Made by a program: the position numbers and the translations under genes. From contig CAVYTA010000008.1 of assembly GCA_963771355.1 (NCBI GenBank), positions 75,700 through 139,699 on the forward strand: a stretch of DNA of 64,000 nt. The letters are read 5' to 3'. The stretch is from an uncultured Candidatus Rokubacteria bacterium. GTDB taxonomy: Bacteria; Methylomirabilota; Methylomirabilia; Rokubacteriales; CSP1-6. Within the stretch, counting starts at the first letter, position 1. Every line of letters starts with the position of its first letter. The notes below the pieces were generated by a model. It saw nothing but the letters and a program-made list of their open reading frames with translations. It was not told the origin of the DNA and did no database searches. Positions 14,098 through 42,727 of the stretch are shown in pieces.

Positions 14098-14121
14098 GGA
14101 GCCGAGTCTACACCCTCGCCG

Positions 14122-14415
14122 CTAGGAGTAACTCGGCTCGGCGGGCAGCGGCAGCGGCGCGCGCAGGCGCGGGAGCGCCTCGTTCAGCACACGCCCGAGG
14201 CCATCGGCGAGGACGTCCGCCAGCTGGCCACGCTCGCGCCGCAGGCTGTCGTTCTCGCTCTGCAGGGCGTCGAGCTCGCGCCGGAGCTCGTTGACCTCCT
14301 GGAGGAGCCGGTTCGAGGCGCGCTCGGTGGCCTCGAGCCGGGCGCACAGGCGGTCCTGCTCGGTGAGGAGCCGGGTGATGCGAATCCGGGCGTCGTGGAA
14401 GTCCAGGTCGTCCAT
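14122..14415 (-). CDS. hypothetical coiled-coil protein, 97 aa
   Basis: Internal ATG at 14415. Heptad-rich sequence (LQEVNELRRELDALQSENDSLRRERGQL). The upstream part of the listed ORF is non-coding in character. Confidence 0.45.
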   Translation of the reverse strand: MDDLDFHDARIRITRLLTEQDRLCARLEATERASNRLLQEVNELRRELDALQSENDSLRRERGQLADVLADGLGRVLNEALPRLRAPLPLPAEPSYS

Positions 14416-14500
14416 GGCCGGCAGTGTAGCACAGGATGGGGTGCAAGCCATGCATCCTACCGTATCTAGGGGGCAGGGCCCTGTGCTAGCCTCGAAGGCC

Positions 14501-19615: not shown

Positions 19616-21218
19616 TCACCGCTTGTTGAGGCGAAGGTCCTCGTAGGGTCCGGAATAGGCGTGGTTGGGAATCATGCCGAGCCCGTGCACCTCCAGCCGC
19701 GGTCCGACCCCGTTGAGAAAGGCGGGCTCGATGACCGGTCCGAACATGACCTGCTCGTGGATCACCTGCTGCATCTTGTGGAGGATCTGCTGGCGGACGC
19801 GCGGGTTCATCTCCTTCGACTGCTCACCGTAGAGCCCGTCCACCTCCGGATAGGTCCCGTAGACGTAGCGGCCCCCCGTCACCGCGTACTGCTCGAGCCG
19901 CGTGGGCGCGTTGCCGGGGGCGCCGCTGCCGCTGAAGATCACGCCCCGGAGCTTCTTGTCACCGTACTCCTGGAAGAAGGCCGCGCGCTCCATGGGCCGC
20001 AGGCGCAGCCGGATGCCTACCTGCTGGAGATAGTTCACCACCGGCTCCCCGATGGCCACCCCGTAGATGGTGTCGCCGGTGAGGTCGCCCGCGTCGAAGC
20101 CATTGGGGTAGCCGGCCTCGGCCAGGAGCGCCCGGGCGCGCTTGACGTCAAACGGATACGCCGGCGGCGTCCAGAAGTACTCCATGCCCTGCGGGATGAA
20201 GGAGTGCGCGAGCTTGGACAGCCCGAGGTAGACCGCGCCATTGATGCCGGCGCGATCGATGGCGAGGTTGGCGGCGAGCCGCACGCGCCGGTCGTGCCAG
20301 GGCGACTTCGGATCCCACTGCTCGGTGAAGAGGAGCCAGGTGGTGAAGGTGAAGTAGGTGGGCACCAGCCGGAGATTCGCCGTGCGCTTGACCTCCTCCG
20401 CCAGAGGCCCCGTGATGGAGTACGCCACGTCGACCTCGCCGCGCCTGAGCGCGGCCAGGCGGGTGGACTCGTCGGGGATCACGCGGAAGATGAGGGTCTT
20501 CACCGCGGGCGCCTTGCGCCAGTAGCCGTCGAAGGCCTCCACCGTCAGCTCCACGCCGGGCTTGAACGCCACGAACCGGTACGGGCCCGCGCCCACCGGG
20601 GCCTTCTTGAAGCCGTCCTCGCCCACCTGCTCCACGTACTTCTTCGGCACGATCCAGGCGGCGCCGGTGGCGGGGGTGGCGTAGAAGGTCATGAAGTCGG
20701 GCCAGGGCTGCTTGAGCACGAAGCGCACGCGCTGCGGGATCGAGCACCTCCACCCGCGCCACCTTGCCCTTGAGCAGCGCCGCGCTGGCGCCGCGATAGC
20801 GCTCGAACGAGAACTTCACATCCTCCGCCGTCACCGGCTCGCCGTGGTGGAACTTCGTCCCCTTGCGCAGCCGGAACTCGTAGGAGAGTCCGTCCTTGGA
20901 CGCGCTCCACGACTCGGCCAGGCTCGGCGTCATGGGATTGCCCGGCATGGGCTTGATGAGGGCATCGTGCAGCGCGTAGAGGACCATGAAGGGCGTGATG
21001 ATGCCGGACGTCTCGGCGGGGTCGAACCAAGTCGGCGCCAGCGTGACGTGGACGGCCCAGGTGGCCTGTCCCTCGGCGGCGCCGGCGGGAGGGACGGCCC
21101 CGGGGCCCGTGACGAAGGCGAGCGCCATCACGGCGAGGAGCAACGGGACGAGCATCGGCATCCGGTGGGACCGGCGGGCCGTGGAGGCCGTGGAGCGAAG
21201 CGGATGCCATCGGAGCAT
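19616..21218 (-). pseudogene. oppA: family-5 peptide/nickel ABC substrate-binding protein (OppA-like), disrupted by a 1-nt frameshift near 20736-20741
   Basis: N-terminal part (signal peptide ... VEVLDP) and C-terminal part (RVRFVLKQPWPDFMTFYATP...) are both good SBP_bac_5 sequence but lie in frames offset by one. The shift falls in a CCC/GGG homopolymer. Confidence 0.7.
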
Positions 21219-21302
21219 GACCCGTCCTCCGCGTCTTTGCGAAGCGTCCCGGAGCGATGCGGGGCCCGGGTAGCGGTCGGTGTGTCCTGGAAAGTTCACG
21301 CG

Positions 21303-21386: not shown

Positions 21387-23069
21387 TCAGCCGCGATGAC
21401 GCAGCACGGCACCGGGCCAGGCCCCGGTGTGGGCCCCATCCCGGTAGAGTACCTGCCCGTTGACGAGAGTGGCATGGATACCCCGGGCCTGGGCGACCAG
21501 TCGCTTGCCGCCACCGGGCAGGTCATGGACGTACTCCGGCGCCACGTCGTCCACCGTATCCGGGTCGAAGAGGACCAGGTCGGCCACCCGGCCGGGAGCG
21601 ATCACGCCCCGATCGGGAATGCCGAAGAACGTCGCCACCTCGGAGGTGAGCCGCCGCACCCCCTCCTCGAGCGACAGCGCCTGCCGCTCGCGCACCCACT
21701 TGCCGAGGAGATAGGTGGCGTAGCCCGCGTCGCAGAGCTGATCCACATGGGCCCCGCCGTCGGACAGTCCGATGAGGAAGCGCGGATCGGTGACCAGGGG
21801 CCGCACCCCCTCCGGGTCCTGATTCATCACCGGGAAGTCGAACAGTGTCTCCAGTCCATCAGCGAGCGCAATGTCCAGAATGGTGTCGGCGGGGTCCTGG
21901 CCGCGCGCCTCCGCGATCTCCGCCACGGATTTTCCGGATAGCGCCAGAGCTTCCGCGCCCGCCGCGTCGCGCACGGTGATGCGGCGCCACTGGCCGCGGA
22001 AGATGCGGCGCCGCTCCATCTCCTCCTTCCACTGGGTCCGGAAGCCCTCGCTCGCGTACAGCGCGCGCTGCTCCACCTCCGTGCGGTTGAACGCCTGGCC
22101 CCACGTGGCCATGGTGGCGAAGATGAACGGGTTCTTGAGCGTGAACTGGATGCGGAGCGGCCGGCAGGACACCTGCGGCACCGCGCGCTCGCGGCCCAGC
22201 AGCGGCGCCATGCGCTGCACGACCTCCTCGTGGGCGCCCGGCGGCCGGCCCGGCCGCGCGAAGACGGCGAGATAGGTCACGGGTCGCCGGCTCTCGTCCA
22301 CCAAGAGCTTCAGCGTCGCGTATTCGTCGTCGGTGACGCGGTCGGGCAGCGAGGTGATGGCGGCCTCGATGACGCCGCGCCCCCGCGCGCGCATGGCTCC
22401 GCAGAGCGCCCGCAGCTCGTCGGCGCTCGCCAGCCGGCAGGCGAGCGGGCGGCCCTGGTCGCCGACATGATTCTGGAGAATGGTGGTGGACAGCCCGAAG
22501 GCACCCGCGTCCAGCGCCTCGCCGAAGAGCCGGCCCAGCGTGGCCGTCTCCTCCGCCGTCGCCGCGCGGTCGACGGAGGCCTCGCCGAGCACGTAGTGGC
22601 GCAGCGGCGTGAGCGGCACCAGCGGCGCCACGTTGATGCCCAGCGGCCGGCGGCCCAGCGCGTCCATGTACTCGCCGAAGGACTCCCACTCCCAGCCGAT
22701 GCCGCGCCGCATGACGTCCAGCGGGATGGCCTCGACGTTGACGAGGTCGCCCATGAGGACCTCGCGCGCCTGGGGCCGGCAGGGGGCCACGCCCACCCCG
22801 CAATTGCCCATCACCACCGAGGTGATGCCATGCCACGATGAGCAGGTGAGGAGCGGGTCCCAGGCCACCTGCGCGTCGTAGTGGGTGTGCGGGTCGATGA
22901 AGCCGGGGGCCAGGACCAGGCCGCGCGCGTTCAGCCGCTCGCGCGCCGCCTCGCCGGGCCCGATCCCGACCGCGGTGATGCGCCCGCCGGAGACGGCGAT
23001 GCCCCCGCGGCGTGCGGGCGCGCCGGTGCCGTCGACGATGCGCGCGTTGTCGATCACGAGATCATGCAT
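21387..23069 (-). CDS. N-acyl-D-amino-acid deacylase (D-aminoacylase) family amidohydrolase
   Basis: MHDLVIDNARIVDGTGAP...GFIDPHTHYD metal-binding motif. Length 560 aa, typical of D-aminoacylases. Confidence 0.8.
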   Translation of the reverse strand: MHDLVIDNARIVDGTGAPARRGGIAVSGGRITAVGIGPGEAARERLNARGLVLAPGFIDPHTHYDAQVAWDPLLTCSSWHGITSVVMGNCGVGVAPCRPQAREVLMGDLVNVEAIPLDVMRRGIGWEWESFGEYMDALGRRPLGINVAPLVPLTPLRHYVLGEASVDRAATAEETATLGRLFGEALDAGAFGLSTTILQNHVGDQGRPLACRLASADELRALCGAMRARGRGVIEAAITSLPDRVTDDEYATLKLLVDESRRPVTYLAVFARPGRPPGAHEEVVQRMAPLLGRERAVPQVSCRPLRIQFTLKNPFIFATMATWGQAFNRTEVEQRALYASEGFRTQWKEEMERRRIFRGQWRRITVRDAAGAEALALSGKSVAEIAEARGQDPADTILDIALADGLETLFDFPVMNQDPEGVRPLVTDPRFLIGLSDGGAHVDQLCDAGYATYLLGKWVRERQALSLEEGVRRLTSEVATFFGIPDRGVIAPGRVADLVLFDPDTVDDVAPEYVHDLPGGGKRLVAQARGIHATLVNGQVLYRDGAHTGAWPGAVLRHRG

Positions 23070-24240
23070 TCGGCTGGCGCTCCTTGGCGCGGCCCGGGCT
23101 GGCCAGGCCGCGCACGTTCCAGATTCGCACCGGTCGGGCCAGACCCTTCAGGGCGAGCGGGCCGACGTCTTCCGCGTCGATCAGATCCTCCACGACCCCC
23201 GCGACCTTGGCCGAGATGAGGATTTGCCCGGCGCCGGCCTCGCCGCAGAGCCGCGCGGCCAGGTTGGTGACGCTGCCGATGGCGCCGTAGTCCCAGCGCC
23301 CCTCGAAGCCGATGGCGCCGATGGTGGCGTAGCCCTGGGAGACCCCCACGCCGAGCCCGAGGTCCCAGCCGCGCTTGCGCCAGCCCGCGCTGAGGCCGGC
23401 CACGACGTCGCGCATGGCCACCGCCATGCGGATCGCGCGCTGGGCCGGATCGGGAACCACCACGGGGTCGTTGAAGAAGACCATCATGCCGTCCCCGGTG
23501 AAGCGCTCGAGGGTGCCCTCGTGGGCGAGGACGAGCCGGCCCATCTCCGCGTGGTACTCGCGGAGCAGCTCCATGATCTCCTCGGGCTCGGCCGTCTCCG
23601 CGAACGCGGTGAAGCCCCGGAGGTCCAGGAACACCACCGTGACTTCGCGGCGGTGGGTCTTGAGCGGGTCGTCGGCGCCGCCGGCCACGATGAGCTCGGC
23701 GAGCTGGGGGGAGAAGAAGCGCTTGAGCCGCCCCAGGCGCTCGAGCTGTCCGACCTGCTCGGCCACGCGCTGCTCCAGCGTCTGGTTCATTTCCGCGAGC
23801 GCGCGGCGATGGCGCTGCTCCTCGTCGTGGAGCCGTTTCTTCTCCAGGCATGCGCCTACCCGCGCCTGCAGGAGCACGGGGTCGAAGGGCTTGCCGAGGT
23901 AATCGTCGGCGCCGAGCTGGATGCATCGCACCACGCTGTCCATCTCGTCCAGCGCGGAGATCATGAGCACGGGGACGTCGCGCCGCGCGGGATCGCCCTT
24001 GATCCGCTGGAGCACGGCATAGCCGTCCAGGTCCGGCATCATGACGTCGAGGAGGACGAGGTCGACGGGCGTCCGTGCGAGCACGTCGAGACCCGATTGC
24101 CCCCCCGCGGCGGTGAGCACCTCGTGGCCCTGACGGCGGAGGCGCCGGGCCAGCATGTCGCGGTTCTCCTCGCTGTCGTCCACCACCAGGATGACGCTGC
24201 GGCTCGACGGCGGCGCGGGCGCGGCCTCGGCCTCCGCGCT
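23062..24240 (-). CDS. response-regulator receiver domain fused to class III adenylate/guanylate cyclase (start uncertain)
   Basis: REC domain (ILVVDDSEENRDML...LLDVMMPDLDGY...) followed by CHD cyclase domain (VTVVFLDLRGFT...FTGDGMMVFF). The ORF is open upstream to 24702, but that upstream part is Arg-rich and out of character. Confidence 0.7.
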   Translation of the reverse strand, partial: SAEAEAAPAPPSSRSVILVVDDSEENRDMLARRLRRQGHEVLTAAGGQSGLDVLARTPVDLVLLDVMMPDLDGYAVLQRIKGDPARRDVPVLMISALDEMDSVVRCIQLGADDYLGKPFDPVLLQARVGACLEKKRLHDEEQRHRRALAEMNQTLEQRVAEQVGQLERLGRLKRFFSPQLAELIVAGGADDPLKTHRREVTVVFLDLRGFTAFAETAEPEEIMELLREYHAEMGRLVLAHEGTLERFTGDGMMVFFNDPVVVPDPAQRAIRMAVAMRDVVAGLSAGWRKRGWDLGLGVGVSQGYATIGAIGFEGRWDYGAIGSVTNLAARLCGEAGAGQILISAKVAGVVEDLIDAEDVGPLALKGLARPVRIWNVRGLASPGRAKERQPNA

Positions 24241-24379
24241 CGCCGTCCGGCCCGCGGGCGCCACGCCGCCGTGGCCGGAGCAGCTCGTGGAGGCGCTCGC
24301 CGGCCGCGCGGATTCGATCGAGGTCGGGCACCAGCGCGTCCGCGCCGGCCTCGGCGGCCTGCCGGAGGAGCGCGGCACG

Positions 24380-24644
24380 CCTCGGCGCGGACGCGCTCGA
24401 GGGGCGGGATGAGCGACCCGAGCGCGGCCGCGAGGTTGGGCGAGGCCGACGGCCCCTGCGCGAGCACCGTGTTCAGCAGGCCCAGCAGCTCGCGGGCATC
24501 CGCCCGGAGCGTCCCGAGCCCTGCCGCGAGGGTCGGACGGTCGCCCACCTCGAGCTCCTCGAGCAGCATCTCGGCGTAGCCGATGATGTGGTTCAGCGGC
24601 GTGCGCAGATCGTGGCGGAGCTGCGCGGCGGGCTCGATGCTCAC
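24380..24644 (-). CDS. HisKA (dimerisation/phosphoacceptor) domain fragment, H-box HDLRTPLN; either a stand-alone phosphotransfer protein or the frameshifted N-terminus of the downstream receiver-cyclase
   Basis: ATG at 24644 overlaps the CheY-like gene stop (ATGA). About 65 aa of clean HisKA sequence. The frame then has no stop and degrades into Arg-rich read-through of the REC domain, which is in another frame. Confidence 0.45.
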
Positions 24645-25018
24645 GCGCCGCCCGCCGGCCCGAGCAGGGCCTCGATCTTCTGGAGCAGGCGGGGAAGATC
24701 AACGGGCTTGGTGTCGAAGTCGTCGCAGCCTGCTGCCAGGGCCTTCTCCCGGTCGCCGGCCATGGCGTGCGCGGTGAGGGCGATCACGGGAATCGTCCGC
24801 GTCTCCGGCATGGCCTTCACCTGGCGGGTGGCTTCCCACCCGTCCATACCCGGCAGGCTCATGTCCATGAGGATGAGCGCCGGCGCCTCCGAGCGCGCCA
24901 TCGCCAGGCCCTGCTCGCCGTCGACGGCGATGGCCACCTCGTAGCCGCGCTTGACGAGGCGACGGGAGAGCATGTCGCGGTTCATCTCGTTGTCCTCGAC
25001 GAGCAGGATCTTGGCCAT
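24641..25018 (-). CDS. single-domain response regulator (CheY-like receiver), 125 aa
   Basis: [17 protein letters not shown]...LMDMSLPGMDGWE...TAHAMAGDREKALAAGCDDFDTKP. ATG overlaps the stop of the giant kinase gene (ATGA). Confidence 0.8.
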   Translation of the reverse strand: MAKILLVEDNEMNRDMLSRRLVKRGYEVAIAVDGEQGLAMARSEAPALILMDMSLPGMDGWEATRQVKAMPETRTIPVIALTAHAMAGDREKALAAGCDDFDTKPVDLPRLLQKIEALLGPAGGA

Positions 25019-28000
25019 CAGGCTTTCGGCCTTCGGCGCGCCACGCTGGCCGCCACCAGGTCGCGCACTTCGGCCAGCAGCTCGTCGCGGCCGTGGGTGC
25101 CCTTCTGGAGAATCTTCTGCACGTAGCCGTTGAGCCGCTCCCGGTCGTCGTGGGACAGGTCCTTGGCGGTGACGACGATGATGGGGATGGCCCGCCAGAG
25201 CTCGTGGCGGCGGAACTCGGCGACGAACTCGAAGCCGTCCATCTCCGGCATCATGAGGTCGAGGAGGACGACGCTGGGGGAGACATCGCGCAGGCGGTCG
25301 AGCGCCATCCGGCCGTTGGCCGCCTCCACCACCTCGAAGCCCTCGCTCTCGAGCATGCGCCGGAGCAGTGCGCGGGCGCCGGAGTCGTCGTCCACCACCA
25401 GGACGGGCCGGTCGCGCCGGTGCTGCTTCAGCACCGTCACCAGCCGTTCGCGATCGATCGGCTTGGTGAGGTAGTCGGAGGCGCCGAGGGCATAGCCCAG
25501 GTTCCGGTCGTCGACGATGGTCAGCATGACCACCGGGATGCCGGCCACGTCCGCGTCGGCCTTGAGGGCGGAGAGAACGGCCCAGCCGTCCATCCCCGGC
25601 ATCATGACGTCGAGGGTGATGGCGTCGGGCCGCAGCTCGCGGGCGCGGCGGAGCCCTTCCTCGCCGCCGGCGGCGGTGACGACGCGGAAGCCCTCCCGGG
25701 TTAGGAAACGCTGCATCAGGTCCCGCACCGCCGCCTCGTCGTCGATTACGAGCACGGTGCCGATGCCCGATGCCACGGGCTCGGCCGGCGCGGCGGGCGC
25801 GGCGGCTTCCCCGGCCGCCTCGGCGACCCGAGCGGGCAGCCGGATCGTGAAAGTGCTGCCGTGGTCCGCCTCGCTCTCGGCGGTGACGTCGCCACCCATC
25901 ATCCGGCAGAGCCGCCGGCTGAGCGCCAGGCCGAGGCCGGTGCCACCATACCGGCGCGAGGTGGCGGCATCGGCCTGGGTGAATGCCTCGAACAGCCTGG
26001 CGAGCTGCTCGGGCGTCATGCCAATGCCGGTGTCGCTGACCGCGAAGGCGAACCACTCCTGACCGTCCACCAAGTCGCGGCTTACCGCCAGCGTCACCGC
26101 CCCACGCTCGGTGAACTTGCAGGCGTTGCTCAGCAGATTGAACAGGGCCTGGCGCACCTTGGTCAGATCCGCGTGCATCGAGCCGATCGCGTCGGGGCAG
26201 CGCACCTCCAGGCGATTGTCGTTCCTGGCCGCCAGGGGCTGGATCACCGCCGCGATGTCCTGGACCAGGCGCGCCACGTCGAAGCTCTCGAGGTAGAGCT
26301 CCATCTTGCCGGCCTCGATCTTGGAGAGATCGAGCACGGCGTTGATGAGCTCCAGCAGGTGCTTGCCGGCCGCGTTGATCTTCTTGAGGTCGTCGGTGAA
26401 CTGCTCGGCCCCGAGATCGGCGGCGTCCTCCTGGAGCATCTCGCTGTAGCCGATGATGGCATTGAGCGGCGTACGCAGTTCGTGGGACATGTTGGCGAGG
26501 AACTCGGACTTGTGACGGTCGGCGGCCTCGAGCTGGCGGCTCTTGTCCCCGATCTCCCGGAAGAGGCGCGCGTTCTGGATGGCCACCGCCGACTGGGCGG
26601 CAAATGTCCTGAGCAGATCGATGACCTCCGAGGAGAACTCCCCGGGTGTCTTCTTGGAGACGGTGAGACCTCCGACCAGGTGATCCTCGCGCAACAGCGG
26701 AATGCCCAGGAGCGCCCGCGTTCCCGTCTGCAACAGGACATCTCGAAGGTGGCCGCTGTACGCCCCCGCCTCGGCAATGTCGGCAACCTGGACCGGCTCG
26801 AGCGTCACGGCCATGCGCCCGGCGACACCCTCGCCCCGTCGGATCGGCGCCCGCCGGGCCACGTCAACCACTTCCTCGGCGAGATTGTGGGTGGCACGGA
26901 ACAGGAGTTCCTCAGCCCGCTCGTCGTACTCGTAGACCGTGCACGAGTCGGTGCCGGCGAGCTGGTTGGCGCGGGAGACGATCGTGCTGAGCACGGTCTC
27001 GAGGTCGAGCGTCGAGCCGAGAGCCTGGCTGACCTCGCCCAGCGCCTTGAGCTCCTGGACCGACCGGGTGAGCTGGGCCGTGCGGGCTTGCAGCGCGTCG
27101 AGCAGCCGCGCGTTCTCGATGGCGATGGCCGCCTGGTCGGCGAAGGTTTCCATCAAGGCGATCTGATTGTCCATGAATGGCCGGACCTCGTGCCTGTGGA
27201 TCACGATGACCCCCAACAGCTCGTCCGCCCTGAGCATGGGGATCACCAGCACGGTCCGGTAAGGAGCAACCTGCTGCCCAGCGTAGGTGTACTCGGGATC
27301 GCTCCGGATATCGTGGATGTGGATGGTGCGCCGCTCAAGGGCCGCACGCCCGACGCCGCTCCCGCGTCCGGGCGCGATGGGATTCCGCTCGGTGAATGCT
27401 CTCAGCTCCGGGGAGACGTTGTGAGTGGCCACGACGCGCAGAACCTGACCGTCGAAGCGGAAGATCAATGCGCGTTCGGCCTCGCACAGCCTGATCGCGT
27501 TCTCGGCCAGCGTCTCGAAGACCGGCTGGAGATCGAAGGTGGACCGGCCGATCACCTTGAGCAGCTCGCTGGTCGCCGTCTGCTGCTCGAGCGCGACCCG
27601 CAGCTCGCCGTTTCGCTCCTCCAGTTCGGTGAACAGGCGGACGTTCTCGACGGCGATGACCGCCTGATCGGCAAAGGTCTGGAGGAGAGCAATCTGATTG
27701 TCGGAGAACGCCCGTGGCGTTTCCCATATGTGGACGTTTATTGTGCCGATGGGGGACCCGTCACGAAGCATCGGCACCGCCAGCACGCTGGCAAGGCCGG
27801 CACCTGCCACCGCACGCACGCTGTAGTCTCGATCCCCTCGGACGTCTGGAATATGAACCGGTCGGCCTGTCAGGATGGTCCGCCCGGACGCGCTTCCCAT
27901 GTGCGGCGCCATCGGGAATACGCTTCGCAGGGCCTCGGCCTGCTCAGGGGCCGTATTGTCGAGAGATTGCAGGTGCATTAATTCGCCGTCATACCTCACG

Positions 28001-31000
28001 ACCTGGGCGCTACCGGCCTCACACAGCCTGCGGGCATTGTGGGCGATCGTGTCGAAGACCGGCTGGACGTTGGTCGGCGAGCTCGAGATCACGCGGAGAA
28101 TCTCGCTCGTCGCCGTCTGCTGCTCGAGCGCCTCGGTGAGGTCTGCGTTCTTGGTCTGCAGCTCGGTGAGCAGCCGCGCATTCTCGATGGCGATGGCGGC
28201 CTGGTCGGCGAAGGTCTCCATCAGGGCGATGTGGCCGTCTGTGAACCGCCGGACCTCGTGCCGGTAGATGACGATCACTCCGAGCAGCTCCTCGGCTCTC
28301 AACATGGGGATCGCGAGCAACGTTCTGACAGGGTCCGCCACGTGCACCGCGTAGGTGACTTCCGAGTCGGCCAGCACGTCATGGATGTGGACTGTGCGCT
28401 TCTCGAGAGCAGCGCGAGCCGTGCCGCTATGGCGGCCGGGAGCAATAGGATTGCGCTCGATGAATGATTGCAACTCGGGGGAGACATTATAGAAGGCCGC
28501 GGCTCGCAGGAGCTGAGCGTCGAAACGGAAGATGACCGCCCGCTCGGCTTCGCACAGCCGGACCGCGTTCTCGGCCAGCGTCTCGAAGACCGGCTGGAGC
28601 TCGAACGTGGACCGCCCGATCACCTTGAGCAGCTCGCTGGTCGCCGTCTGTTGCTCGAGGGACACGCGGAGCTCGCTGTTGCGCCCCTCCAGCTCGGTGA
28701 ACAGGCGCACGTTCTCGATGGCGATCACCGCCTGGTCGGCGAAGGTCTGCAGCAGCCCGATCTGCTTGTCCGAGAATGGCGCCACGTGATCCCGGGCAAC
28801 GAGGATAGTCCCGATGGGCACGTTGTCGCGAAGCATCGGGACTGCGAGAGCGCTTCGATAGCCGGTCGTTGTTGCGATCGGAAGCGTATATTCGGGATCC
28901 TCAAGCACGTCTGGCACCTGGACGACGTTACGGGTCAAGATCGCCCGTCCGCTCACGCTCCCCCGGCTCGGAGGCAGCGGGTATGTCCGCCCCAGCGCAT
29001 CCAATCGCTCCGCGCTGAGGTTGTGGTGCGCCACGAGATGCATGAGCCGCCCGTCAAACTGAATGACGAGACCATTGACTGCCCCCGAGAGTTGCGTGGC
29101 GCTCGCGGCGATCGCTTCGAAGGTCGGGCGGACGTCGGTCGGGGAGCTGCTGATGACGCGCAGGATCTCGCTGGTCGCCGTCTGCTGCTCGAGCGCCTCG
29201 GTGAGGTCGGCGTTCTTGGCCTGGAGCTCGGTGAGCAGCCGCGCGTTCTCGATGGCGATGGCCGCCTGGTCGGCGAAGGTCTCCATCAGGGCGATCTGAC
29301 CGTCCGTGAAGGGCTGGACCTCGAGTCTGTAGATCGTGATCACGCCCAGGAGCTCATCCGCTCGGAGCATTGGTATCGCAAGCATGGTTCGAGTGGGATC
29401 AATCGTCTGCGCCCCGTAAGTGTATTCGGGATCGGCCTGGATGTCGTGAACGTGCGTGGTGCGCCGATCGAGTGCAGCGCGACCCGTGGTGCTTCCGCGT
29501 CCGAGGGGAATAGGATTCCTCTCGATGAAGCTCTTGAGATTGGGGGACACGTTGTGGGCGGTCACGACTCGCAAGACCTGACCGTCGAAGCGGAAGACCA
29601 AAGCTCGCTCGGCAGCGCACAACCGGACCGCGTTCTCGGCCAGGGTTTCGAAGACGGGCTGGAGATCGAAGGTGGAGCGGCCGATCACCTTGAGGAGCTC
29701 GCTCGTCGCGGTCTGCTGCTCGAGGGCGACGCGCAGCTCGGAGTTCCGCGCCTCCAGCTCGGTGAACAGGCGGACGTTCTCGATGGCGATGACGGCCTGG
29801 TCGGCGAAGGTCTTCAGCATCTCGATGTGGGCGGTAGCGAACCGTCCGGGTGCGCTGCGCTGGACAACGATGGTGCCGATCGGACTGCTATCCGCCCGGA
29901 GCATCGGCACGGCAAGCAGGCTTCGCCCGGCTGCCAGGTTGACCTGATATTCCGAGTCCTCCATCACGTCCGGGATTTCGGCGATGGCACACGTGAGAAT
30001 CGCCCGCCCCGAGGCTTGTGAGTGGCTCGGACGCATCGGGTACGCTCGCCGCAGACCTTCCAGCACGTCTGGCGTCACGTCGTGTGCCACGACGTGAAGC
30101 TGCTCGCCGTCGAACCGATGCAAGACGCCGAAGCTCGCCCCGCACAGCTGCACCGCGTTCCGGACGATGGCATCGAACACCGGCTGGACGTCGGTCGGGG
30201 AACTGCTGATGACCCGCAGGATCTCGCTCGTCGCTGTCTGCTGCTCCAGGGCCTCGGTGAGGTCGGCGTTCTTGGCCTGCAGCTCGGTGAGCAGCCGCGC
30301 GTTCTCGATGGCGATGGCGGCCTGGTCGGCGAAGGTCTCTAGCAGGGCGATCTGGCTGTCGGTGAACGGTCGGACCTCGTGTCTGTAGATCAAGATCACG
30401 CCCAGCAACTCGTCCGCCCTGAGCATGGGGACCGTGAGTATGGTTCGAAACGGGTCCACCTGCCGCGAGCCGTAGGTGTACTCGGGGTCGGTCTGGACAT
30501 CATGGATGTGGACGGTGCGCCGCTCGAGGGCGGCGCGCGCCGCGGCGCTGCTCCTTCCGGGCGCAATGGGATTCTGCTCGATGAAGGCTCTGATCTCGGC
30601 GGAAGCATTGTGAGTGGCTACAACGCGCAGGAGCTGACCGTCGAAGCGGAAGATGAACGATCGTTCTGAGTCGCACAGTCTCACCGCGTTCTCGGCCAGC
30701 GTCTCGAAGACCGGCTGGAGGTCGAAGGTGGAGCGCCCGATCACCTTGAGCAGCTCGCTGGTGGCCGTCTGCTGTTCGAGAGCGACGCGGAGCTCACTGT
30801 TGCGTGCCCCGAGCTCGGTGAAGAGGCGCACGTTCTCAATGGCGATGACCGCCTGATCGGCAAACGTCTTGAGCAGCTCGATCTGCTTGTCGCTGAAGGG
30901 GCGGACCTCCGTCCTGCGGATCAGAAGGCTGCCGATCGCCACCCCTTCGCGCACCAGAGGCGTCGCGAGTGTCGTGTGATGTCCTGCGGCTCTGGCCAGC

Positions 31001-32494
31001 GCCCGGCCTTCCGCGAACTCGGCTTCATCCGCCTCAGCGAGATTGTGAACATGGATCGGCTGCCGGTCGATGATCGCCCGGCCCATGACCGAGCCGCGGG
31101 TGAGCGGGAACGTCCGGCCCAAGACGCTGGCGATCGGTCCGTAATGGGCTGCGATCCGACCCGTCTGGCCTTCCACGAGCACGAGCACCGCATCGAAAGC
31201 CGCACATACTCGGGCTGCGTTCTCGGCGACGGTATCCAGCACGGGCTGAAGGTCAGTCGGTGAGCCCGCGATCACGCGCAGGATCTCGCTCGTCGCCGTC
31301 TGCTGCTCCAGGGCCTCGGTGAGGTCGGCGTTCTTGGCTTGGAGCTCGGTGAGCAGCCGCGCGTTCTCGATGGCGATGGCCGCCTGGTCGGCGAAGGTCT
31401 CCATGAGAGCGATCTGACCGTCGGTGAACGGCCGCACCACATGCCGGTAGATGAAGATCACTCCGAGCAGCTCATCCGCGCGCATTATGGGGATCCCGAG
31501 CGCGGTGCGAATGGGGATTGTGTCGGCCTGTGCGAGCCTGATAGGTGTGCTCTGGGTCGGCCTGGACATCCGGAATGTGGATCGTGCGTCGCTCGAGGGC
31601 GGCGCGCCCGGTGGCGCTGTTGCGCCCGGGGAAATGGGATTGCCCTCGAGGAACGCCCGGCGTCCGGCGGAGACATTGTGCGTGGCCACGAGACGGAGCA
31701 GCTGACCGTCGAAGCGGAAGATGGCGGCGCGTTCGGCCTCGCACAGCCTGACCGCATTCTCGGCCAGCGTGTCGAAGACCGGCTGGAGGTCGAAGGTGGA
31801 CCGCCCGATCACCTTGAGCAGCTCGCTGGTCGCCGTCTGCTGCTCGAGGGCGACGCGGAGCTCGCGGTTGCGTGCGTCCAGCTCGGTGAACAGGCGCACG
31901 TTCTCGATAGCGATCACGGCCTGGTCGGCGAAGGTCTGGAGCAGCGCAACCTGCCGGTCGGTGAAGGGCAGGGCCTCGGTGCGGCGGAGCTGGATCACGC
32001 CGATGGCAGCGCCATTCTTCAGCAAGGGAACACTCAGCAGCGTCCGGTGGCCGAACCGTTGCGCGTAGCGACTCCCCTCCGGGAACTCACCGATCTCGGC
32101 CTGCACGTCGGCAATGTGGATGGTCCGCGCCTCCAGCACACTCCGACCGGCGATGGTGCCTCGGGCGAGGGCCAGAGTGAACTCGCCGACCGGGTCTACG
32201 GCGATCGGCCCATGATGGGCGACGAGGAGGAGTCGGTCGCCTCGCGAGCCGGAAGATGGTGGAATCCTGGGCCTCGCAGAGGCGGCCCGCGCTGGCCGTC
32301 ACGGCGTCGAGTACCGGCTGGATGTCAATCGGCGAGCTGCTGATGATCCGGAGGATCTCGGCGGTGGCCGTCTGCTGCTCGAGGGCCTCGGCAAGCTTCG
32401 CCGCGAGCCCGTCGCTTCTCGCGCGCTCCTGCTCGAGCGCCTTGCGCAGCGCCTCGACTTCGAGGGCGAGATCAACCTTGGGCGCCGGCGCCAT
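25018..32494 (-). CDS. giant hybrid sensor histidine kinase: N-terminal coiled coil, about 12 tandem GAF domains, HisKA, HATPase_c, two receiver domains (~2,490 aa). A +1/-1 frameshift near 32245 splits it into ORFs 32087-32497 and 25018-32139
   Basis: GAF domains joined by conserved linkers alternating [34 protein letters not shown] and [33 protein letters not shown]. His[20 protein letters not shown], HATPase_c, then REC x2. The frame upstream of the listed start still encodes GAF sequence ([33 protein letters not shown]), and the 136-aa upstream ORF carries the same repeat unit. Confidence 0.8.
26500..32100. repeat. about five tandem copies of a ~1.07-kb DNA repeat (one di-GAF unit each) inside the giant kinase gene; linker segments about 90-95% identical over 100-200 nt
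   Basis: Near-identical plus-strand segments recur with 1,060-1,080 bp period at about 27541, 28601, 29681, 30721 and 31801 (type 1 linker) and about 28081, 29161, 30221 and 31281 (type 2 linker). Confidence 0.6.
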
Positions 32495-32675
32495 CACTTC
32501 TCCTCGGGAGCAGGGTACCGAAAGTGCCCCGAGAGTAGCCCGCCGCGTCAGGGCCGGTCAAGGCGCGGGGGCACGGCCGGCCGCCCCGGGCGCGGCCCGG
32601 GCGTCGCGGGGGCGTCGTTGACAAGGGCCCCCCGATGGCCGACGGTAGGGGCATCCCGGTTCCAGGAGGAACGCG

Positions 32676-33788
32676 ATGAAGTTCGGCCTCTTCTACGAGC
32701 TGTCGGTGCCCCGCCCGTGGACGCGGGAGTCGGAGCGCACCGTCTACAACAACGCGCTGGAGCAGGTGAAGCTGGCCGACGAGCTGGGCTTCGATCAGGT
32801 GTGGGCGGTGGAGCACCACTTCCTCGAGGAGTATTCCCATTGCCCGGCGCCCGAGCTCTTCCTCACCGCCTGCGCCATGGTCACGCAGAAGATCCGGGTG
32901 GGCCACGGCATCGTCGTCTGCGTGCCCGAGTTCAATCACCCCATCAAGATCGCCGAGCGCACCGCGGTGCTGGACATTCTTTCGGGCGGCCGCCTGGAGG
33001 TGGGCACCGGCCGCTCCGCCACCTGGACCGAGCTGGGCGGCTTTCGCTCCGATCCGGACATCACCAAGAAGTCCTGGGACGAGTTCGTCCGCTGCCTGCC
33101 GAAGATGTGGACGCAGGAGACCTATGCCTACGAGGGCGAGTTCTGGTCCATGCCCGAGCGCACCATCATCCCCAAGGTGTACCAGCAGCCGCACCCGCCG
33201 CTCTGGGTGGCGGTGACGAGTCCCGGCACCGAGCTCGACGCCGCGGACCGCGGGCTCGGCTCGCTGGGCCTCACCTTCGGCCAGTTCGCCGAGCAGGAGC
33301 GCCGCATCGCCGAGTATCGCCGGCGCATCCAGCTCTGCGAGCCGGTGGGCGACTTCGTCAACGATCAGGTGAGCACGGTGAACTTCCTCTACTGCCACGA
33401 GGACGACGAGCGCGGGCTCGCCACCGGCAAGCGCATGGCGGACTCGTTCAACTACCTCGCCTCCCAGCTCATCTCCGCCCGCGAGGCCTATCCCTCCCGG
33501 TCCTACCCGTCGCTGGGTCTCCTGCCGCAGCTTCGCCGCCAGGCCACCGGGCCCGACGCCGGCGAGCAGGCGGGCGAAGGCCTGGCGCTGGGGGGCCCCG
33601 AGCGCATCACCCGCGCGCTCAAGAAGTGGGAGGCGGTGGGAGTGGACCGGGTAAACTTTCTCCTGAACACGATGGAGATCATCCCCCAGGCGGACGTGCT
33701 CGCCAGCCTTCAGCTCTTCGCCCGCGAAGTCATGCCGGCCTTCCGCGACGCCAAGGCCGCCAACGGCGCCGCGAACGGGGGCGCGTGA
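32676..33788 (+). CDS. LLM-class (luciferase-like) flavin/F420-dependent oxidoreductase
   Basis: MKFGLFYELSVPRPW...VWAVEHHF... is a typical LLM TIM-barrel N-terminus; 370 aa. Confidence 0.8.
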   Translation: MKFGLFYELSVPRPWTRESERTVYNNALEQVKLADELGFDQVWAVEHHFLEEYSHCPAPELFLTACAMVTQKIRVGHGIVVCVPEFNHPIKIAERTAVLDILSGGRLEVGTGRSATWTELGGFRSDPDITKKSWDEFVRCLPKMWTQETYAYEGEFWSMPERTIIPKVYQQPHPPLWVAVTSPGTELDAADRGLGSLGLTFGQFAEQERRIAEYRRRIQLCEPVGDFVNDQVSTVNFLYCHEDDERGLATGKRMADSFNYLASQLISAREAYPSRSYPSLGLLPQLRRQATGPDAGEQAGEGLALGGPERITRALKKWEAVGVDRVNFLLNTMEIIPQADVLASLQLFAREVMPAFRDAKAANGAANGGA

Positions 33789-34555
33789 TGCCGCTGTTCG
33801 GCGCGCTCGAGCTCGACCGGGCCGCTCCGCGCCTGGCCACCTTGCGCGACCTCGACACCGAGCCGTGGACCCTGCCCCAGGCGGAGATCCTCCAGCTGGC
33901 GTTCGAGGTGCCGCGCGCCACGCAGGCGTTGCTGCCGCGCGCCATGCACCCCGCCATCCCCCCCTACGTGACCCTTCACGTGACGCGCTACCCGGAGAGC
34001 CCGGCGGGCCCGTTCGCGCTGGCCACCCTCCGCCTGATGGCGCGGGCGGGCGCGCATCCGCGCGGCTTCTTCCTCGGCGCGGTGGCGAGCACGCCCGAGG
34101 CGGCCGCCGCGCTCCGCGAGCGCTGGGGCCTTCCCGCCGCCGCGGGCACGGTGACGCTGCGGCGCCGGCACGACCGCGTGATGGCGTCCGTCACCCGCGA
34201 CGGCGCGCCCATTCTCGAGTGCGCGCTGGTGGATCCTCAGCCCATCTCGGGCGGCGACGTGCAGTACATCCACTCGGTGACCCTGGCGCAAGTCCCGCTC
34301 GACGGCACCACCGCCCCGTGGCTGGTGCAGGTGGACCCGCGCTACACCTTCCACAAGGCGGAGCGGGGCCGGCCCGAGGTGAGCCGGCTGGACGCGGAGG
34401 CCTGGAACGCGGCCGCGGTGCGGCTGCTCAATCCCATCGCGGCCACCGTCTGCACCGTCGATACCGATCTGCCCCGCATCCGCTTCGTCATGGACCCGGA
34501 GGTGCCGGCCTGGAAGGGCACGCGGAAGATCCGCGACTCGCGGGAGGCCCTGTGA
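33788..34555 (+). CDS. hypothetical protein (possibly acetoacetate-decarboxylase-like fold), 255 aa
   Basis: ATG overlaps the LLM stop (TGATG). Clean coding character and no recognisable catalytic motifs. Family assignment is a guess. Confidence 0.45.
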   Translation: MPLFGALELDRAAPRLATLRDLDTEPWTLPQAEILQLAFEVPRATQALLPRAMHPAIPPYVTLHVTRYPESPAGPFALATLRLMARAGAHPRGFFLGAVASTPEAAAALRERWGLPAAAGTVTLRRRHDRVMASVTRDGAPILECALVDPQPISGGDVQYIHSVTLAQVPLDGTTAPWLVQVDPRYTFHKAERGRPEVSRLDAEAWNAAAVRLLNPIAATVCTVDTDLPRIRFVMDPEVPAWKGTRKIRDSREAL

Positions 34556-35436
34556 GCGGGGGTGGCATCGGGGTCGTGCGCGCCCATCTCGCCAAGATTC
34601 CCCCGGCGAACACCGTGGCGGAGCGGCGGGCGCAGTACGACCGGGCCGAACGGGTCTTTCCCTTGCCGACCGATGTCAGCGTCAAGCCGGTGCACGTGCC
34701 GGCCATCCCCGCGGAGTGGATCGAGCCGTCGGCCGCGCGCGAGGGCGCCTTCGTGCTCTATCTCCACGGCGGCGGCTACGTGATCGGCTCGCCGAGGTCG
34801 CACCGTCACCTGGCCGCCTCCATCGCGGTGGCCGCGCGCGCCTCCGTGCTGCTCCCCGACTACCGGCTCGCGCCCGAGCACCCGTTCCCGGCCGCGCTCG
34901 AGGACGCGGTGGCGGCGTATCGCTGGCTGCTCGATCGCGGCACCGCCCCGCGCCGCATCGTCATCGCGGGCGACTCCGCGGGAGGCGGCCTCACCGTGGC
35001 CACGCTCGTCGCGCTGCGCGAGCGCGGGGTGCCGCTGCCCGCCGCCGGCGTCTGCATCTCGCCGTGGGTGGACCTCACCGGGAGCGGGGCCTCCTATGCC
35101 ACCAAGGCCGCCTCCGATCCCATCGTGACCCGCGACGGCGTGATGGAGATGGCGCGCGCGTACCTGGGCGCCACCGACGCCCGGACCCCGCTGGCCTCCC
35201 CGCTCTTCGCCGACCTCACCGGGCTCCCGCCGCTCTTCATACAGGTTGGCACCGAGGAAGTCTTGCTGGACGACGCGATGGAGCTGGCCGAGCGCGCCAA
35301 GGCGGCAGGGGTGGAGGCCACGCTGGAGCTGTGGCCGGAGATGGTCCACGTCTGGCAGTGGTTCTTCCCCATGCTCGACGAAGGCCGCACCGCCATCGAC
35401 GGCATCGGCGCCTTCGTGCAGGCGAAGACGGCGTGA
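34552..35436 (+). CDS. alpha/beta-hydrolase fold-3 esterase/lipase (HGGG ... GDSAGG)
   Basis: Oxyanion-hole motif LHGGGY and nucleophile elbow GDSAGG. GTG start overlaps the upstream stop. Confidence 0.75.
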   Translation: MSGGGIGVVRAHLAKIPPANTVAERRAQYDRAERVFPLPTDVSVKPVHVPAIPAEWIEPSAAREGAFVLYLHGGGYVIGSPRSHRHLAASIAVAARASVLLPDYRLAPEHPFPAALEDAVAAYRWLLDRGTAPRRIVIAGDSAGGGLTVATLVALRERGVPLPAAGVCISPWVDLTGSGASYATKAASDPIVTRDGVMEMARAYLGATDARTPLASPLFADLTGLPPLFIQVGTEEVLLDDAMELAERAKAAGVEATLELWPEMVHVWQWFFPMLDEGRTAIDGIGAFVQAKTA

Positions 35437-35446
35437 GGGCGACCCC

Positions 35447-36445
35447 ATGACGACCGCCACCCGGAGCGCGCTCCACACCCCGATCTGCGATCTCCTCGGC
35501 ATCCGCTACCCGATCTGCCAGGCGGGCATGGGCTATGTGGCGCGTTCCGCGCTGGCCGCCGCCGTCTCCGAGGCGGGCGGGCTCGGCGTCATCGCCGCCG
35601 CCAACCTGACCCCACGCGAGCTGAGGGAGGAGATCCGGAAGGTCCGCGACCACACCGATCGGCCGTTCGGCGTGGACATCCTCTTTGCGAGCGTGCGCGT
35701 GTCGGGGAGCGAGGCGGACCAGTTCACCGACACGGTGCGCGCCTGGGCCGACGTGACGCTCGAGCTCCAGGTGCCGGTGCTGGTGGCCGGGCTCGGCAAT
35801 CCGGGGCCGGTGACCGCGGCGGCCCATCGCCAGGGCATGAAGGTGATGGCCCTCTGCGGCAACGTGAAGCAGGCGCTCGATCACGCCGCCAACGGCGTGG
35901 ACGTGGTGATCGCCCAGGGCCACGAGGCCGGCGGCCACACCGGCCGCATCGCCGGCATGGTGCTCATCCCCGCGGTGGTGGACGCGGTGGCACCGCGCCT
36001 GGTGATGGCGGCGGGCGGCATGGCCGACGGTCGCGGCATCGTGGCCGCGCTGGCGCTGGGGGCCCAGGGCGTGTGGATGGGCACGCGCTTCATCGCCACG
36101 CCCGAGGCGTACTGCCACGACAACTACAAGCAGCGCGTGGTGGAGCTCGAGGAGGACGGCACCGTGGTGACGCGCGCGGCCAGCGGCAAGCCGTGCCGCC
36201 TCATCCGCAACGCCTTCACGCGCGAGTGGGAAAAGCGCGAGGCGGAGATCCAGCCCTTCCCCATCCAGGGCGCGCGGGTGGGACGCGAGGCCGGCATCCG
36301 CGCGCGCGAGCAGGGGGATATCGAGAATGGCAATGCCCCGTGCGGCCAGTCGGCGGCGTTGATCCGCGGGATCGTCCCCGCCGGCGAGGTGGTGCGCCGC
36401 CTCGTGGCGGAGGCCGAGGACGTGCTCGCGCGGCTCGCCCGTTGA
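35447..36445 (+). CDS. nitronate monooxygenase (2-nitropropane dioxygenase, NMO) family FMN enzyme
   Basis: LLGIRYPICQAGMGYVA...GLGVIAA... NMO TIM-barrel motifs. ATG at 35447. Confidence 0.8.
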   Translation: MTTATRSALHTPICDLLGIRYPICQAGMGYVARSALAAAVSEAGGLGVIAAANLTPRELREEIRKVRDHTDRPFGVDILFASVRVSGSEADQFTDTVRAWADVTLELQVPVLVAGLGNPGPVTAAAHRQGMKVMALCGNVKQALDHAANGVDVVIAQGHEAGGHTGRIAGMVLIPAVVDAVAPRLVMAAGGMADGRGIVAALALGAQGVWMGTRFIATPEAYCHDNYKQRVVELEEDGTVVTRAASGKPCRLIRNAFTREWEKREAEIQPFPIQGARVGREAGIRAREQGDIENGNAPCGQSAALIRGIVPAGEVVRRLVAEAEDVLARLAR

Positions 36446-40494: not shown

Positions 40495-40606
40495 GGGGGC
40501 GTCCTCCTGCGGAGAGCATCGCACACTTTGACTTGGCGGGAGGCGGCGCGTAGCATCGGCGCAACCGGGTCGGTCGTGCCGTGTTGGTGACCGCGGGGGA
40601 GGGGTC

Positions 40607-41890
40607 ATGGCCTTCGACTACAAGCAGTACTTCGGTGACATCGTGGTGGCGCAGAACCTCGTCACCCGGCCGGAGGAGCGCACCTGGCGGCTGGCCGCGC
40701 CCCCGCCCGATGCCGAGCATCACGACATCGTGCTCTATCTGGGCTGCAATGTCCTCCGCACCTCCCACATGATCAAGACCGTCACCGCCATCTTCGACCG
40801 GCTGGGGCTGGACTATGTCGCGGTGGGCGGGCCGACCTACTGCTGCGGCATCGTGCATCACCAGAACGGCGACACCGCCGCCTCCACCGGGATGAACCGG
40901 CGCACGAAGGAGCTCTTCGAGCGCTACACGCCGCGCGAGGTCGTGATGTGGTGCCCGTCCTGCATCTACTTCTACGACGAGGTGCAGAAGCTCGACCTTC
41001 CATTTCCCACGCGGCATACGGCGGAGTTCCTCGCCGATCGGCTGGGCGAGCTCCCCCTCTCACCGGTGGCGGCGCGCCGGGTAGCGCTGCACGGCCACGG
41101 CGTCGGCGAGGCACGCCGGCGCGAGGGCGAGGCCGGCCGCCGGCTGCTGGCCGCGGTGCCGGGCCTCACCGTGGTGAGCCTCGAGCCCGACGAGCGCTTC
41201 GGCCGGAGCTGCAACCCCGCGCTCATGCAGAACCTCGGCCCCGAGGGCTGGCGCGCCCTGGCCCTGGGCGAGCTCGACCGCGCCCTCGCCGCGGGGGCGG
41301 ACACCTTCGCCGGCATGTATCACGGCTGCCAGCGTCAGCTCTGCGCCTTCGAGGCCGAGCGCCCCATCACCATCGAGCATTACCTGACGACGTTCGCGCG
41401 GGCCCTCGGCATCGAGTTCGAGGACACCTTCAAGAAGTACCGCCTCTGGGCCGACCCCGACCGCATCTTCGAGGACTCCACGCCCTGCCAGCAGGGGAAT
41501 GGCGTGGACCCCGCCCGCGCGCGCGACCTCATCGCGCGGACCTTCGTGCCCATCGGCGCGGTGGCGCCCGGCCCGGCCGCGGGGACCTGGGCGCAGGTCA
41601 GTCGGGTACTGGCACGCCCGACGCGCCTGCTTGGTAGCTGTGGAGGCGGCGTGCGCGCGGGGCGGGGGGCGTGTGACATCCTCGCATTACAACATATGGC
41701 CCCGATGCTGAGAACCGTCGGGCTCATCATGTCATTCACATTCGGCCTTCTCGCGGCGCGTTCGCGGAGAAGCGCAGCCGCGGGCGAAGGTCTCTCGGAT
41801 AGGGTTTCTCGCGACTTGCCGACGCCCCACGATGAGGCATTGCGGCAAGGCCTCCACGAGGTCAACTACGTGGAGGGCCGGAACATCTAG
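40607..41890 (+). CDS. CCG-domain (cysteine-rich) Fe-S oxidoreductase, HdrB/GlcF-like; the 3' ~250 nt appear to derive from a decayed binding-protein gene (in-frame fusion, native stop lost)
   Basis: CCG-domain cysteines (LGCN, PTYCCG, CPSC; second copy around GCQRQLC). After about residue 330 the sequence becomes low-complexity and then matches the N-terminal motif of PF04392-type binding proteins (EALRQGLHEVNYVEGRNI). Confidence 0.55.
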   Translation: MAFDYKQYFGDIVVAQNLVTRPEERTWRLAAPPPDAEHHDIVLYLGCNVLRTSHMIKTVTAIFDRLGLDYVAVGGPTYCCGIVHHQNGDTAASTGMNRRTKELFERYTPREVVMWCPSCIYFYDEVQKLDLPFPTRHTAEFLADRLGELPLSPVAARRVALHGHGVGEARRREGEAGRRLLAAVPGLTVVSLEPDERFGRSCNPALMQNLGPEGWRALALGELDRALAAGADTFAGMYHGCQRQLCAFEAERPITIEHYLTTFARALGIEFEDTFKKYRLWADPDRIFEDSTPCQQGNGVDPARARDLIARTFVPIGAVAPGPAAGTWAQVSRVLARPTRLLGSCGGGVRAGRGACDILALQHMAPMLRTVGLIMSFTFGLLAARSRRSAAAGEGLSDRVSRDLPTPHDEALRQGLHEVNYVEGRNI

Positions 41891-42720: not shown

Positions 42721-42727
42721 TGTCGCG

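Follow-up and report, generated by a model that had tools for sequence, protein, structure and literature searches.

Histidine kinases with GAF sensor domains and regulators with tandem GAF domains are well known. The protein considered here, a poly-GAF hybrid histidine kinase, is encoded in a 64,000-nucleotide (nt) stretch of DNA from an uncultured Candidatus Rokubacteria bacterium (GenBank assembly GCA_963771355.1, contig CAVYTA010000008.1, positions 75,700 to 139,699), which we call the window and whose first letter is position 1 of all coordinates below; the gene occupies positions 25,018 to 32,494 on the minus strand. Several described systems resemble it in part. In the cyanobacterial adenylyl cyclases CyaB1/CyaB2 and the mammalian PDE2/5/6 (PDB 1ykd, 3ibj, 3lfv), two GAF domains are joined by a long helix, and helical linkers regulate a C-terminal catalytic domain. 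The multi-GAF kinases of the cyanobacteriochrome/phytochrome-related group, the only group that we found in the literature on multiple GAF domains, carry serial GAF domains upstream of a histidine kinase, each a potentially independent input. DosS/DosT (DevS) of Mycobacterium are likewise GAF-sensor histidine kinases, and are the closest solved structures by sequence. Finally, the S-helix is a conserved helix of about 40–50 residues between signalling domains, with a polar central heptad, which has been proposed to act as a conformational relay; inter-GAF helices were placed in a separate, poorly conserved class (Anantharaman, Balaji and Aravind, 2006; PMC1592074).

The kinase differs from each of these. 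CyaB and PDE proteins have one GAF pair, whereas the kinase has five pairs and one extra GAF in series, with a histidine kinase as its output. A model of one of these pairs (Y3–X3, see below) finds its best PDB matches with Foldseek in CyaB2 (1ykd, E 7e-18), PDE2A, PDE5A, PDE6 and phytochrome GAF-PHY structures, but at an identity of only 13–18%, and the NKFDE signature of GAF domains that bind cyclic nucleoside monophosphates (cNMP; N-K … F-x3-D-E) is absent, with no NK dipeptide and no F-x3-DE anywhere in the 2,491 amino acids (aa) of the protein. Unlike the cyanobacteriochromes, it comes from a non-cyanobacterial lineage, has no bilin-binding cysteine motif (neither CH nor DxCF occurs in the protein), and strings together 11 GAF domains in which a constant spacer type alternates with variable ones across an invariant EQQTAT junction; some of its relatives exceed 3,900 aa, with at least 15 junction motifs. 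The only conserved cysteine lies at unit position 35, in the motif RLCEA, in nine of ten units. The PDB matches by sequence are weak, to the haem GAFs of DosT/DevS (E 2e-6 to 3e-5), and cover about 75–110 residues at low identity; DosS/DosT have two GAF domains and are not hybrid kinases. Like the S-helix, the junction is a conserved helix with polar central-heptad residues between signalling domains, but where the S-helix, a five-heptad parallel coiled coil, has its central ERT, the junction reads LEQQTATSE, and no other part of the protein is as conserved as this inter-GAF helix.

In the following, we describe a gene that probably opens a signalling operon of three translationally coupled genes. 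It encodes a soluble 11-GAF hybrid kinase, whose array is conserved at its junctions and appears to recombine by cassettes, and its reading frame is interrupted in the assembly by indels that are likely consensus errors.

An 11-GAF hybrid kinase in a three-gene operon

The coding signal in the G+C content of third codon positions (GC3) follows the minus-strand frame throughout the gene; plus-strand open reading frames (ORFs) of up to 706 aa in the same region were set aside as antisense artefacts of high GC. A sequence-only reading of the window had proposed a hybrid kinase of about 2,490 aa with roughly 12 tandem GAF domains at these positions. Its size holds once the frame is repaired (2,491 aa), but the gene is not one open frame: the longest unbroken ORF as assembled (25,018–32,139, 2,373 aa) starts with a GTG inside a GAF domain, while the ATG at 32,494 lies in a different frame and opens an ORF of 136 aa that ends at 32,087. 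This ATG is preceded by GAGGAG, and the N-terminus that it encodes matches that of an intact orthologue, P0002. P0002 is the kinase of L001, a syntenic allele from a very close relative, with flanks that are 96% identical in DNA.

Pfam recognizes GAF folds in 11 rather than 12 stretches (PF01590/PF13185/PF13492; E 6e-172 for the protein), followed by HisKA (77 bits), HATPase_c (100 bits) and two Response_reg domains, which identify the protein as a hybrid histidine kinase. The proposed alternation of two GAF subtypes is borne out by the unit identities. Ten of the domains are bounded by the EQQTAT motif and alternate strictly between a variable type, Y, and a constant type, X; the eleventh, Z, is of a different type, lacks an EQQTAT junction and adjoins the DHp domain. 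From the N-terminus, all on the minus strand, these are Y1 (31,846–32,380), X1 (31,309–31,845), Y2 (30,778–31,308), X2 (30,247–30,777), Y3 (29,722–30,246), X3 (29,191–29,721), Y4 (28,657–29,190), X4 (28,126–28,656), Y5 (27,589–28,125), X5 (27,058–27,588) and Z (26,512–27,057). Within the gene, X domains share 75–80% protein identity with each other, Y domains 42–60%, and Y with X domains 42–50%. Z is followed by HisKA (26,308–26,511, ORF residues 1877–1944, H-box SHELRTPLN), HATPase_c (25,828–26,169, ORF residues 1991–2104) and the receivers at 25,429–25,755 and, with approximate limits, 25,060–25,404, in both of which the pattern DD…D…T…K is readable. In NCBIfam, only the kinase cores of HrmK/BarA/TorS are matched, well under their cut-offs, so that the protein is no equivalog of any named kinase. 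A search for transmembrane segments found no credible one; the 19-mer of highest hydrophobicity sits in GAF strands and includes Arg, Asp and Glu.

The kinase stop codon overlaps by 1 nt with the start of a gene for a single-domain response regulator of 125 aa (24,641–25,018, minus strand; Pfam), which is 100% identical to its counterpart in L001. This abuts a third gene (23,062–24,644, minus strand; Pfam and tblastn with the orthologue in L002), whose product begins with a DHp-only HisKA domain (RHDLRTPLNHIIGYAEML; H-box RHDLRTPLN) and continues with a receiver and a class III nucleotide cyclase domain. The 125-aa receiver lies downstream of the kinase in L001, L002, L083, L084, L085 and on the contig of P0004. 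The order kinase, 125-aa receiver and HisKA-REC-Guanylate_cyc is complete in all of these except L001, where the contig runs out within the third gene, past the receiver. The parts of a possible phosphorelay (hybrid kinase, DHp-only HisKA with its H-box, REC-Guanylate_cyc) are all present and conserved in the operon. Because Pfam finds no Hpt domain in the kinase, the DHp-only domain is likely to provide the second histidine of a His-Asp-His-Asp relay ending in control of the cyclase.

The junctions stand out within the protein. Across 28 di-GAF units from six loci, column entropy rises from 0.26–0.42 in the junctions to 0.87 in X cores and 1.71 in Y cores. The two peptides that had been quoted for the almost invariant 40-aa linkers are both present in the translation and nearly invariant indeed, and their supposed coiled-coil character is matched by a single predicted helix: an AlphaFold2 model of Y3–X3 (mean predicted local distance difference test score, pLDDT, 87.9) shows two GAF folds and two helices of 53 residues each (168–220 and 345–397), which run from the last helix of a GAF domain through the junction and end five residues short of the first helix in the GAF domain that follows.

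From this layout, we infer the following division of labour. The model predicts that each GAF domain's last helix runs unbroken for about 53 residues through the near-invariant junction, with its consensus …FADQA.IAIEN.RL..EL...N..L…, to the start of the next domain. The Y domains may each be a separate input module of its own type, while the X domains and junction helices could form a dimeric helical spine that passes on and sums conformational changes towards the DHp/ATPase core. Phosphate would flow from the kinase histidine to an aspartate of the internal receivers, on to the histidine of the DHp-only domain of the third gene product and to the aspartate of its receiver, which, when phosphorylated, would switch the class III nucleotide cyclase; the small single-domain receiver might serve as an intermediate or a phosphate sink. 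The array itself probably evolves as whole GAF cassettes are gained, lost and exchanged through recombination in the conserved junctions.

Points against this reading and the broken frame

Several observations weigh against this account. The Y3–X3 structure is a monomer prediction, and the relative orientation of its domains is uncertain (predicted template modelling score, pTM, 0.55). The heptad signal of the junction is weak, with strongly hydrophobic residues in 0.47 of a/d positions versus 0.21–0.29 elsewhere and with Asn, Gln and Ser at the core, which is compatible with a dynamic coiled coil but no proof of one. Neither a cNMP-binding nor a bilin-binding motif is present. Moreover, five of the eight frame disruptions that we found in the window lie in the kinase operon, an enrichment that is not a fair statistic since the search was more thorough there than elsewhere, and the first of them is complex (TCA to GCGA) and no simple homopolymer slip.

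This first disruption (32,242–32,246) adds a base within Y1, in CTCGCG[A]GGCGAC, where the orthologue has CTCTCAGGCGAC; tblastn with internal units places the beginning of the first GAF domain in the frame of the ATG and its continuation, from about 32,250, in the main frame. The second is a missing base in a CCCC run of X1 (31,629–31,632), seen in the DNA alignment of X1–X5 and as a frame change in tblastn, and the third an extra base in X1 (31,530–31,540) that restores the frame. Between these two, which are about 95 nt apart in the alignment of the five X units, the conserved X1 peptide is encoded one frame off, from about 31,631 to 31,534 or for about 31 codons. All three, on the minus strand, went unremarked in the sequence-only reading, which took 25,018–32,494 as a readable gene. 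The 2,491-aa translation, free of stops, is obtained by deleting a base at each of 32,242 and 31,534 and inserting one at about 31,630. Repaired Y1 spans the whole Pfam GAF profile (1–133 of 133, 61.7 bits), as does repaired X1, whose score rises to 81.6 bits from 59.0 bits as assembled. Programmed frameshifting was considered and rejected, there being no slippery heptamer at CTCGCGAGGCGAC, where the orthologue is in frame.

The cyclase gene is also disrupted. Compared by tblastn with the intact orthologue in L002, it spans three frames (24,644–24,390, 24,346–24,290 and 24,273–23,092), which implies disruptions near 24,350–24,390 and 24,273–24,290. Outside the operon, frame disruptions were found in two SBP_bac_5 genes and in one copy of an SBP_bac_3 gene, which brings the frameshifted genes besides the kinase to at least four; the frame plot of the window is noisy at 70% GC.

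These indels might be real mutations, and the kinase, perhaps together with the whole operon, a recently inactivated pseudogene. Five disruptions do fall within 9.4 kb of one operon, the first of them is not the slip that a homopolymer error would leave, and the four flanking genes at 32,676–36,253 are intact and about 99% identical to those of L001. We nevertheless consider inactivation unlikely. Unrelated binding-protein genes at 20.7, 44.1 and 59.7 kb are frameshifted too, disruptions 2 and 3 compensate each other and keep the frame, and the 125-aa receiver gene is identical in protein to its counterpart. Furthermore, the collinear 3' part of the kinase (about 25,018–27,500) differs from L001/P0002 by about 47 nt and, counted by eye, by roughly 8–10 aa; as the changes are mostly synonymous, it shows no sign of relaxed constraint. 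Since genes unrelated to the operon are also frame-disrupted in the same window, consensus errors rather than decay are the most likely source of the three kinase indels.

Repeats, cassettes and alleles

At the DNA level, the gene contains a tandem array, as had been noticed from the letters alone: about five copies of a di-GAF unit of about 1.07 kb had been proposed, and five are found, spaced by 1068, 1065, 1056 and 1062 nt. A repeat search resolves them into ten single-GAF copies spaced by 525–537 nt, with periods of about 531 and 1,062 nt. Tandem Repeats Finder gave no report on the array because this period exceeds its 500-nt limit. The GC content of the array (26,000–32,000) is 0.645–0.663, below that of its flanks (0.70–0.73).

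The near-identical stretches of 100–200 nt that had been described do exist, but in the junctions and not over whole units. The best 100-nt windows between units of the same type are 89–97% identical, all of them in junctions, and the best 200-nt windows 85–93%, whereas ungapped identity over the whole unit is 69–82% for pairs of X and 53–66% for pairs of Y. The longest exact repeats measure 65, 48, 48, 44 and 44 nt, the longest joining positions 29,222 and 31,340. In five of six control stretches of equal size from the window, the longest exact repeat is 13–17 nt; the sixth (40,501–47,977) also has one of 65 nt, whose source is an unrelated duplication of the SBP_bac_3 gene. The repeats are thus real and far above chance. 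They are mainly, however, the footprint of a strongly conserved peptide and of GC3 bias rather than of recent duplications: in the junctions, codon positions 1 and 2 are 91–95% identical and position 3 only 0.71–0.74, which places the similarity mainly at the protein level. The stretches of 85–97% DNA identity would accordingly be explained by conservation of the junction helix together with high-GC3 codon bias.

Alternatively, concerted evolution, with recent tandem duplication and continuing gene conversion between units, could be the main source of the high identity, in place of selection on the junction helix. The X units, at 75–80% identity within this gene versus a median of 65% for the X cores of 121 proteins, would fit this, as would the 65-nt exact repeat between 29,222 and 31,340 and the mosaic blocks in which identity to L001 is distributed. 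Yet the junction peptides are nearly invariant even across proteins from different loci that are 55–70% identical overall, their third codon positions have diverged as described, and the Y cores, 42–60% identical within the gene, are each closer to units of other genomes (80–97%). Concerted evolution as the main cause therefore seems to us rather doubtful.

The comparison with L001 indicates instead how the array changes. The four genes upstream of the kinase are about 99% identical in protein, but collinearity is lost at about 31,75x–31,87x and regained at about 28,780, and a sharp jump at about 27,610 takes identity from about 0.8 to 0.98 or more; both breakpoints and the identity jump sit in junction helices. 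P0002 has 3,026 aa and 14 GAF domains in the order Y1 Y3' X Ynew X Y2' X Y4' X Ynew X Y5' X5 Z, so that the Y modules are reordered relative to the window. Y2 is 97% identical to P0002 unit 6, Y3 89% to unit 2 and Y4 93% to unit 8, while X5 and the last X of P0002 are 100% identical. Y5 shares 80% identity with its P0002 counterpart and 92–93% with units of L097/L100, whose Z is only 86–88% identical to that of the window, which indicates cassette exchange. In a second syntenic orthologue, L085, the kinase has 3,210 aa and would correspond to about 15 GAF domains. The syntenic alleles thus measure 2,491, 3,026 and 3,210 aa, of which the 3,026-aa allele was dissected unit by unit.

The cassettes appear to come from a large pool. 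When 1,137 unit cores from 121 proteins were clustered, the X cores formed one cluster (median identity 65%) and the Y cores more than 100 (median identity 38%). Within one protein, 92–97% of the Y units fall in different clusters, and Y1–Y5 of the window belong to five different recurrent ones. Since X is one cluster and the Y units are non-redundant, the arrays look as if they were assembled from a library of modules and not by duplication in place. Shuffling of array units is therefore supported at the evolutionary level, as far as sequence comparison goes, and the earlier suggestion that the locus is recombinogenic and may vary in copy number gains support from the alleles (14 GAF domains in L001, 3,210 aa in L085, length steps of about 177 aa) rather than from reads.

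A repeat array of this kind may also be misassembled, with units collapsed, dropped or chimerically joined across junctions, so that their true number or order differs. The exact repeats of 44–65 nt do lie in junctions, sequence-quality problems are visible in the window, and the closest allele, P0002, holds three more units. In addition, the kinase ORF runs off the contig at its 5' end in 35 of 85 related loci (80 metagenome contigs, L086–L165, and five earlier loci), a figure which comes without a baseline break rate from ordinary genes and is consistent with assemblies breaking inside GAF arrays. However, the ten units are all distinct and no exact repeat exceeds 65 nt, which is shorter than ordinary reads; both argue against collapse. 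Every junction is in frame save for the three 1-nt indels, strict Y–X alternation is common in independent assemblies, and differences in unit number occur throughout the family, also on contigs of 0.5–5.6 Mb. We hold an assembly artefact to be quite improbable.

A large family, its possible inputs and the neighbouring genes

The architecture had been called unusual for a cytoplasmic sensor, which overstates the case. A word-indexed search returned at least 8,000 homologues of the kinase at E ≤ 1e-30, and a profile of the di-GAF unit matched 20,690 cluster representatives (50% identity) at the same threshold and 66,077 at 1e-10. The best 120 of the at least 8,000 homologues range from 1,939 to 3,939 aa, in length steps of about 177 aa, and the best 150 of the 20,690 cluster representatives have 3–17 matched stretches each. 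By the number of EQQTAT-type motifs, a protein holds up to 15 units, in which the alternation of Y and X is common but not strict. Those homologues that carry an organism name are labelled as metagenome-assembled genomes of Methylomirabilota; judged by these names, the operon probably belongs to a bacterium of the Methylomirabilota (Rokubacteria). By contrast, a scan of genome contigs with the kinase core yielded generic hybrid kinases from many phyla at up to 65% identity (80 loci) and no species representative near the window, and only two of these loci have EQQTAT arrays: L045 (Rokubacteria, ten junction motifs) and L005 (Xanthobacteraceae, four). The architecture is thus ordinary in public metagenomes, and the gene is typical of a very large uncharacterised family from soil bacteria, with thousands of database relatives that bear no annotation beyond 'GAF domain-containing protein'. 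Taken singly, the gene is no discovery.

The interesting part is the pattern at the level of the family, with its constant relay GAF, non-redundant variable GAFs, shuffling at junctions and wiring to a cyclase. In the literature on EQQTAT, on tandem or multiple GAF domains and on GAF domains in Rokubacteria/Methylomirabilota, we found no description of such a poly-GAF family, nor of its individual features: 10–20 GAF domains of which one constant type alternates with many variable types, variable types that are hardly repeated within a protein, reshuffling of whole cassettes between near-identical strains, and a fixed operon ending in a nucleotide cyclase.

What the variable domains would sense is a matter for tentative proposals. 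That the GAF domains are cyclic-nucleotide sensors giving feedback to the cyclase, as in CyaB1/CyaB2, or bilin- or haem-based photo- or redox sensors, as in cyanobacteriochromes or DosS, would agree with the cAMP-binding tandem GAF of CyaB2 as the best structural match, with a nucleotide cyclase as the operon output and with the haem GAFs of DosT/DevS as the best, if weak, sequence matches in the PDB (E 2e-6), but we regard it as very improbable given the lack of any NK…F…DE, CH or DxCF motif, the 13–18% identity to the matched structures and the more than 100 distinct Y types, which speak against one shared ligand.

Conceivably, though we would not put it higher than that, the kinases are combinatorial multi-input sensors, built from more than 100 types of GAF cassette in which each Y would respond to a different small molecule, while X and the EQQTAT helix would serve both as the relay that sums the inputs and as the substrate for recombination. 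If such a cassette library exists, near-identical strains would differ in what they sense, through a modular, shuffled system with one cyclic-nucleotide output. And if the variable GAF domains are real ligand sensors, the family would offer a natural system in which to study how multiple inputs are integrated along one helical spine, and to follow sensory repertoires as they evolve through the shuffling of domains in uncultured soil bacteria. For annotators, the message is simpler: the copy of the kinase in this assembly is frame-broken, and reads that span the array are required before its number of units can be relied on.

The kinase gene is separated by a divergent intergenic region (32,495–32,675) from a luciferase-like monooxygenase gene (32,676–33,788, plus strand), which is followed upstream of the kinase, also in divergent orientation, by ADC-family, Abhydrolase_3-family and nitronate monooxygenase genes. 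ARAGORN calls a tRNA-Ser(gga) at 35,295–35,381 (plus strand), within the coding sequence of the Abhydrolase_3-family gene. The protein encoded there shares 99% identity with its L001 counterpart, and the tRNA call is probably a false positive. A second large sensor of 1,400 aa (53,815–58,017, plus strand) combines CheB methylesterase, CheR methyltransferase, PAS, HisKA, HATPase and receiver domains.

The binding-protein genes of the window show the following breaks. An SBP_bac_5 gene (19,616–21,299, minus strand) is split at about 20,730–20,760 into one ORF with a signal peptide and the N-terminal part (20,148–21,299) and another at 19,616–20,728. In a second SBP_bac_5 gene (59,202–60,947, minus strand), the Pfam match stops at residue 403, at the very point (about 59,740) where the GC3 signal changes frame; the sequence …GCCGGGCGTCCCC… contains one base too many. 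At 42,713–44,436 (plus strand) lies a tandem duplication of an SBP_bac_3 gene of about 870 nt, with copies that are 76–92% identical and an offset between them that changes from 874 to 873, 868 and 869 nt; copy 1 is intact with 284 codons, and copy 2 lies in two ORFs as a result of indels.

Two further regions deserve mention. The interval 45,300–49,600 (about 4.3 kb) has a GC content of 0.61–0.62, no long ORF with coding-type GC3, no Rfam match and no tRNA. At 12,706–14,640 (minus strand), a B12-binding/radical SAM ORF and an upstream ORF of 172 codons with coding-type GC3 share one frame and are separated by a single TAG (14,122–14,124), which could be an in-frame stop or the boundary of two adjacent genes.

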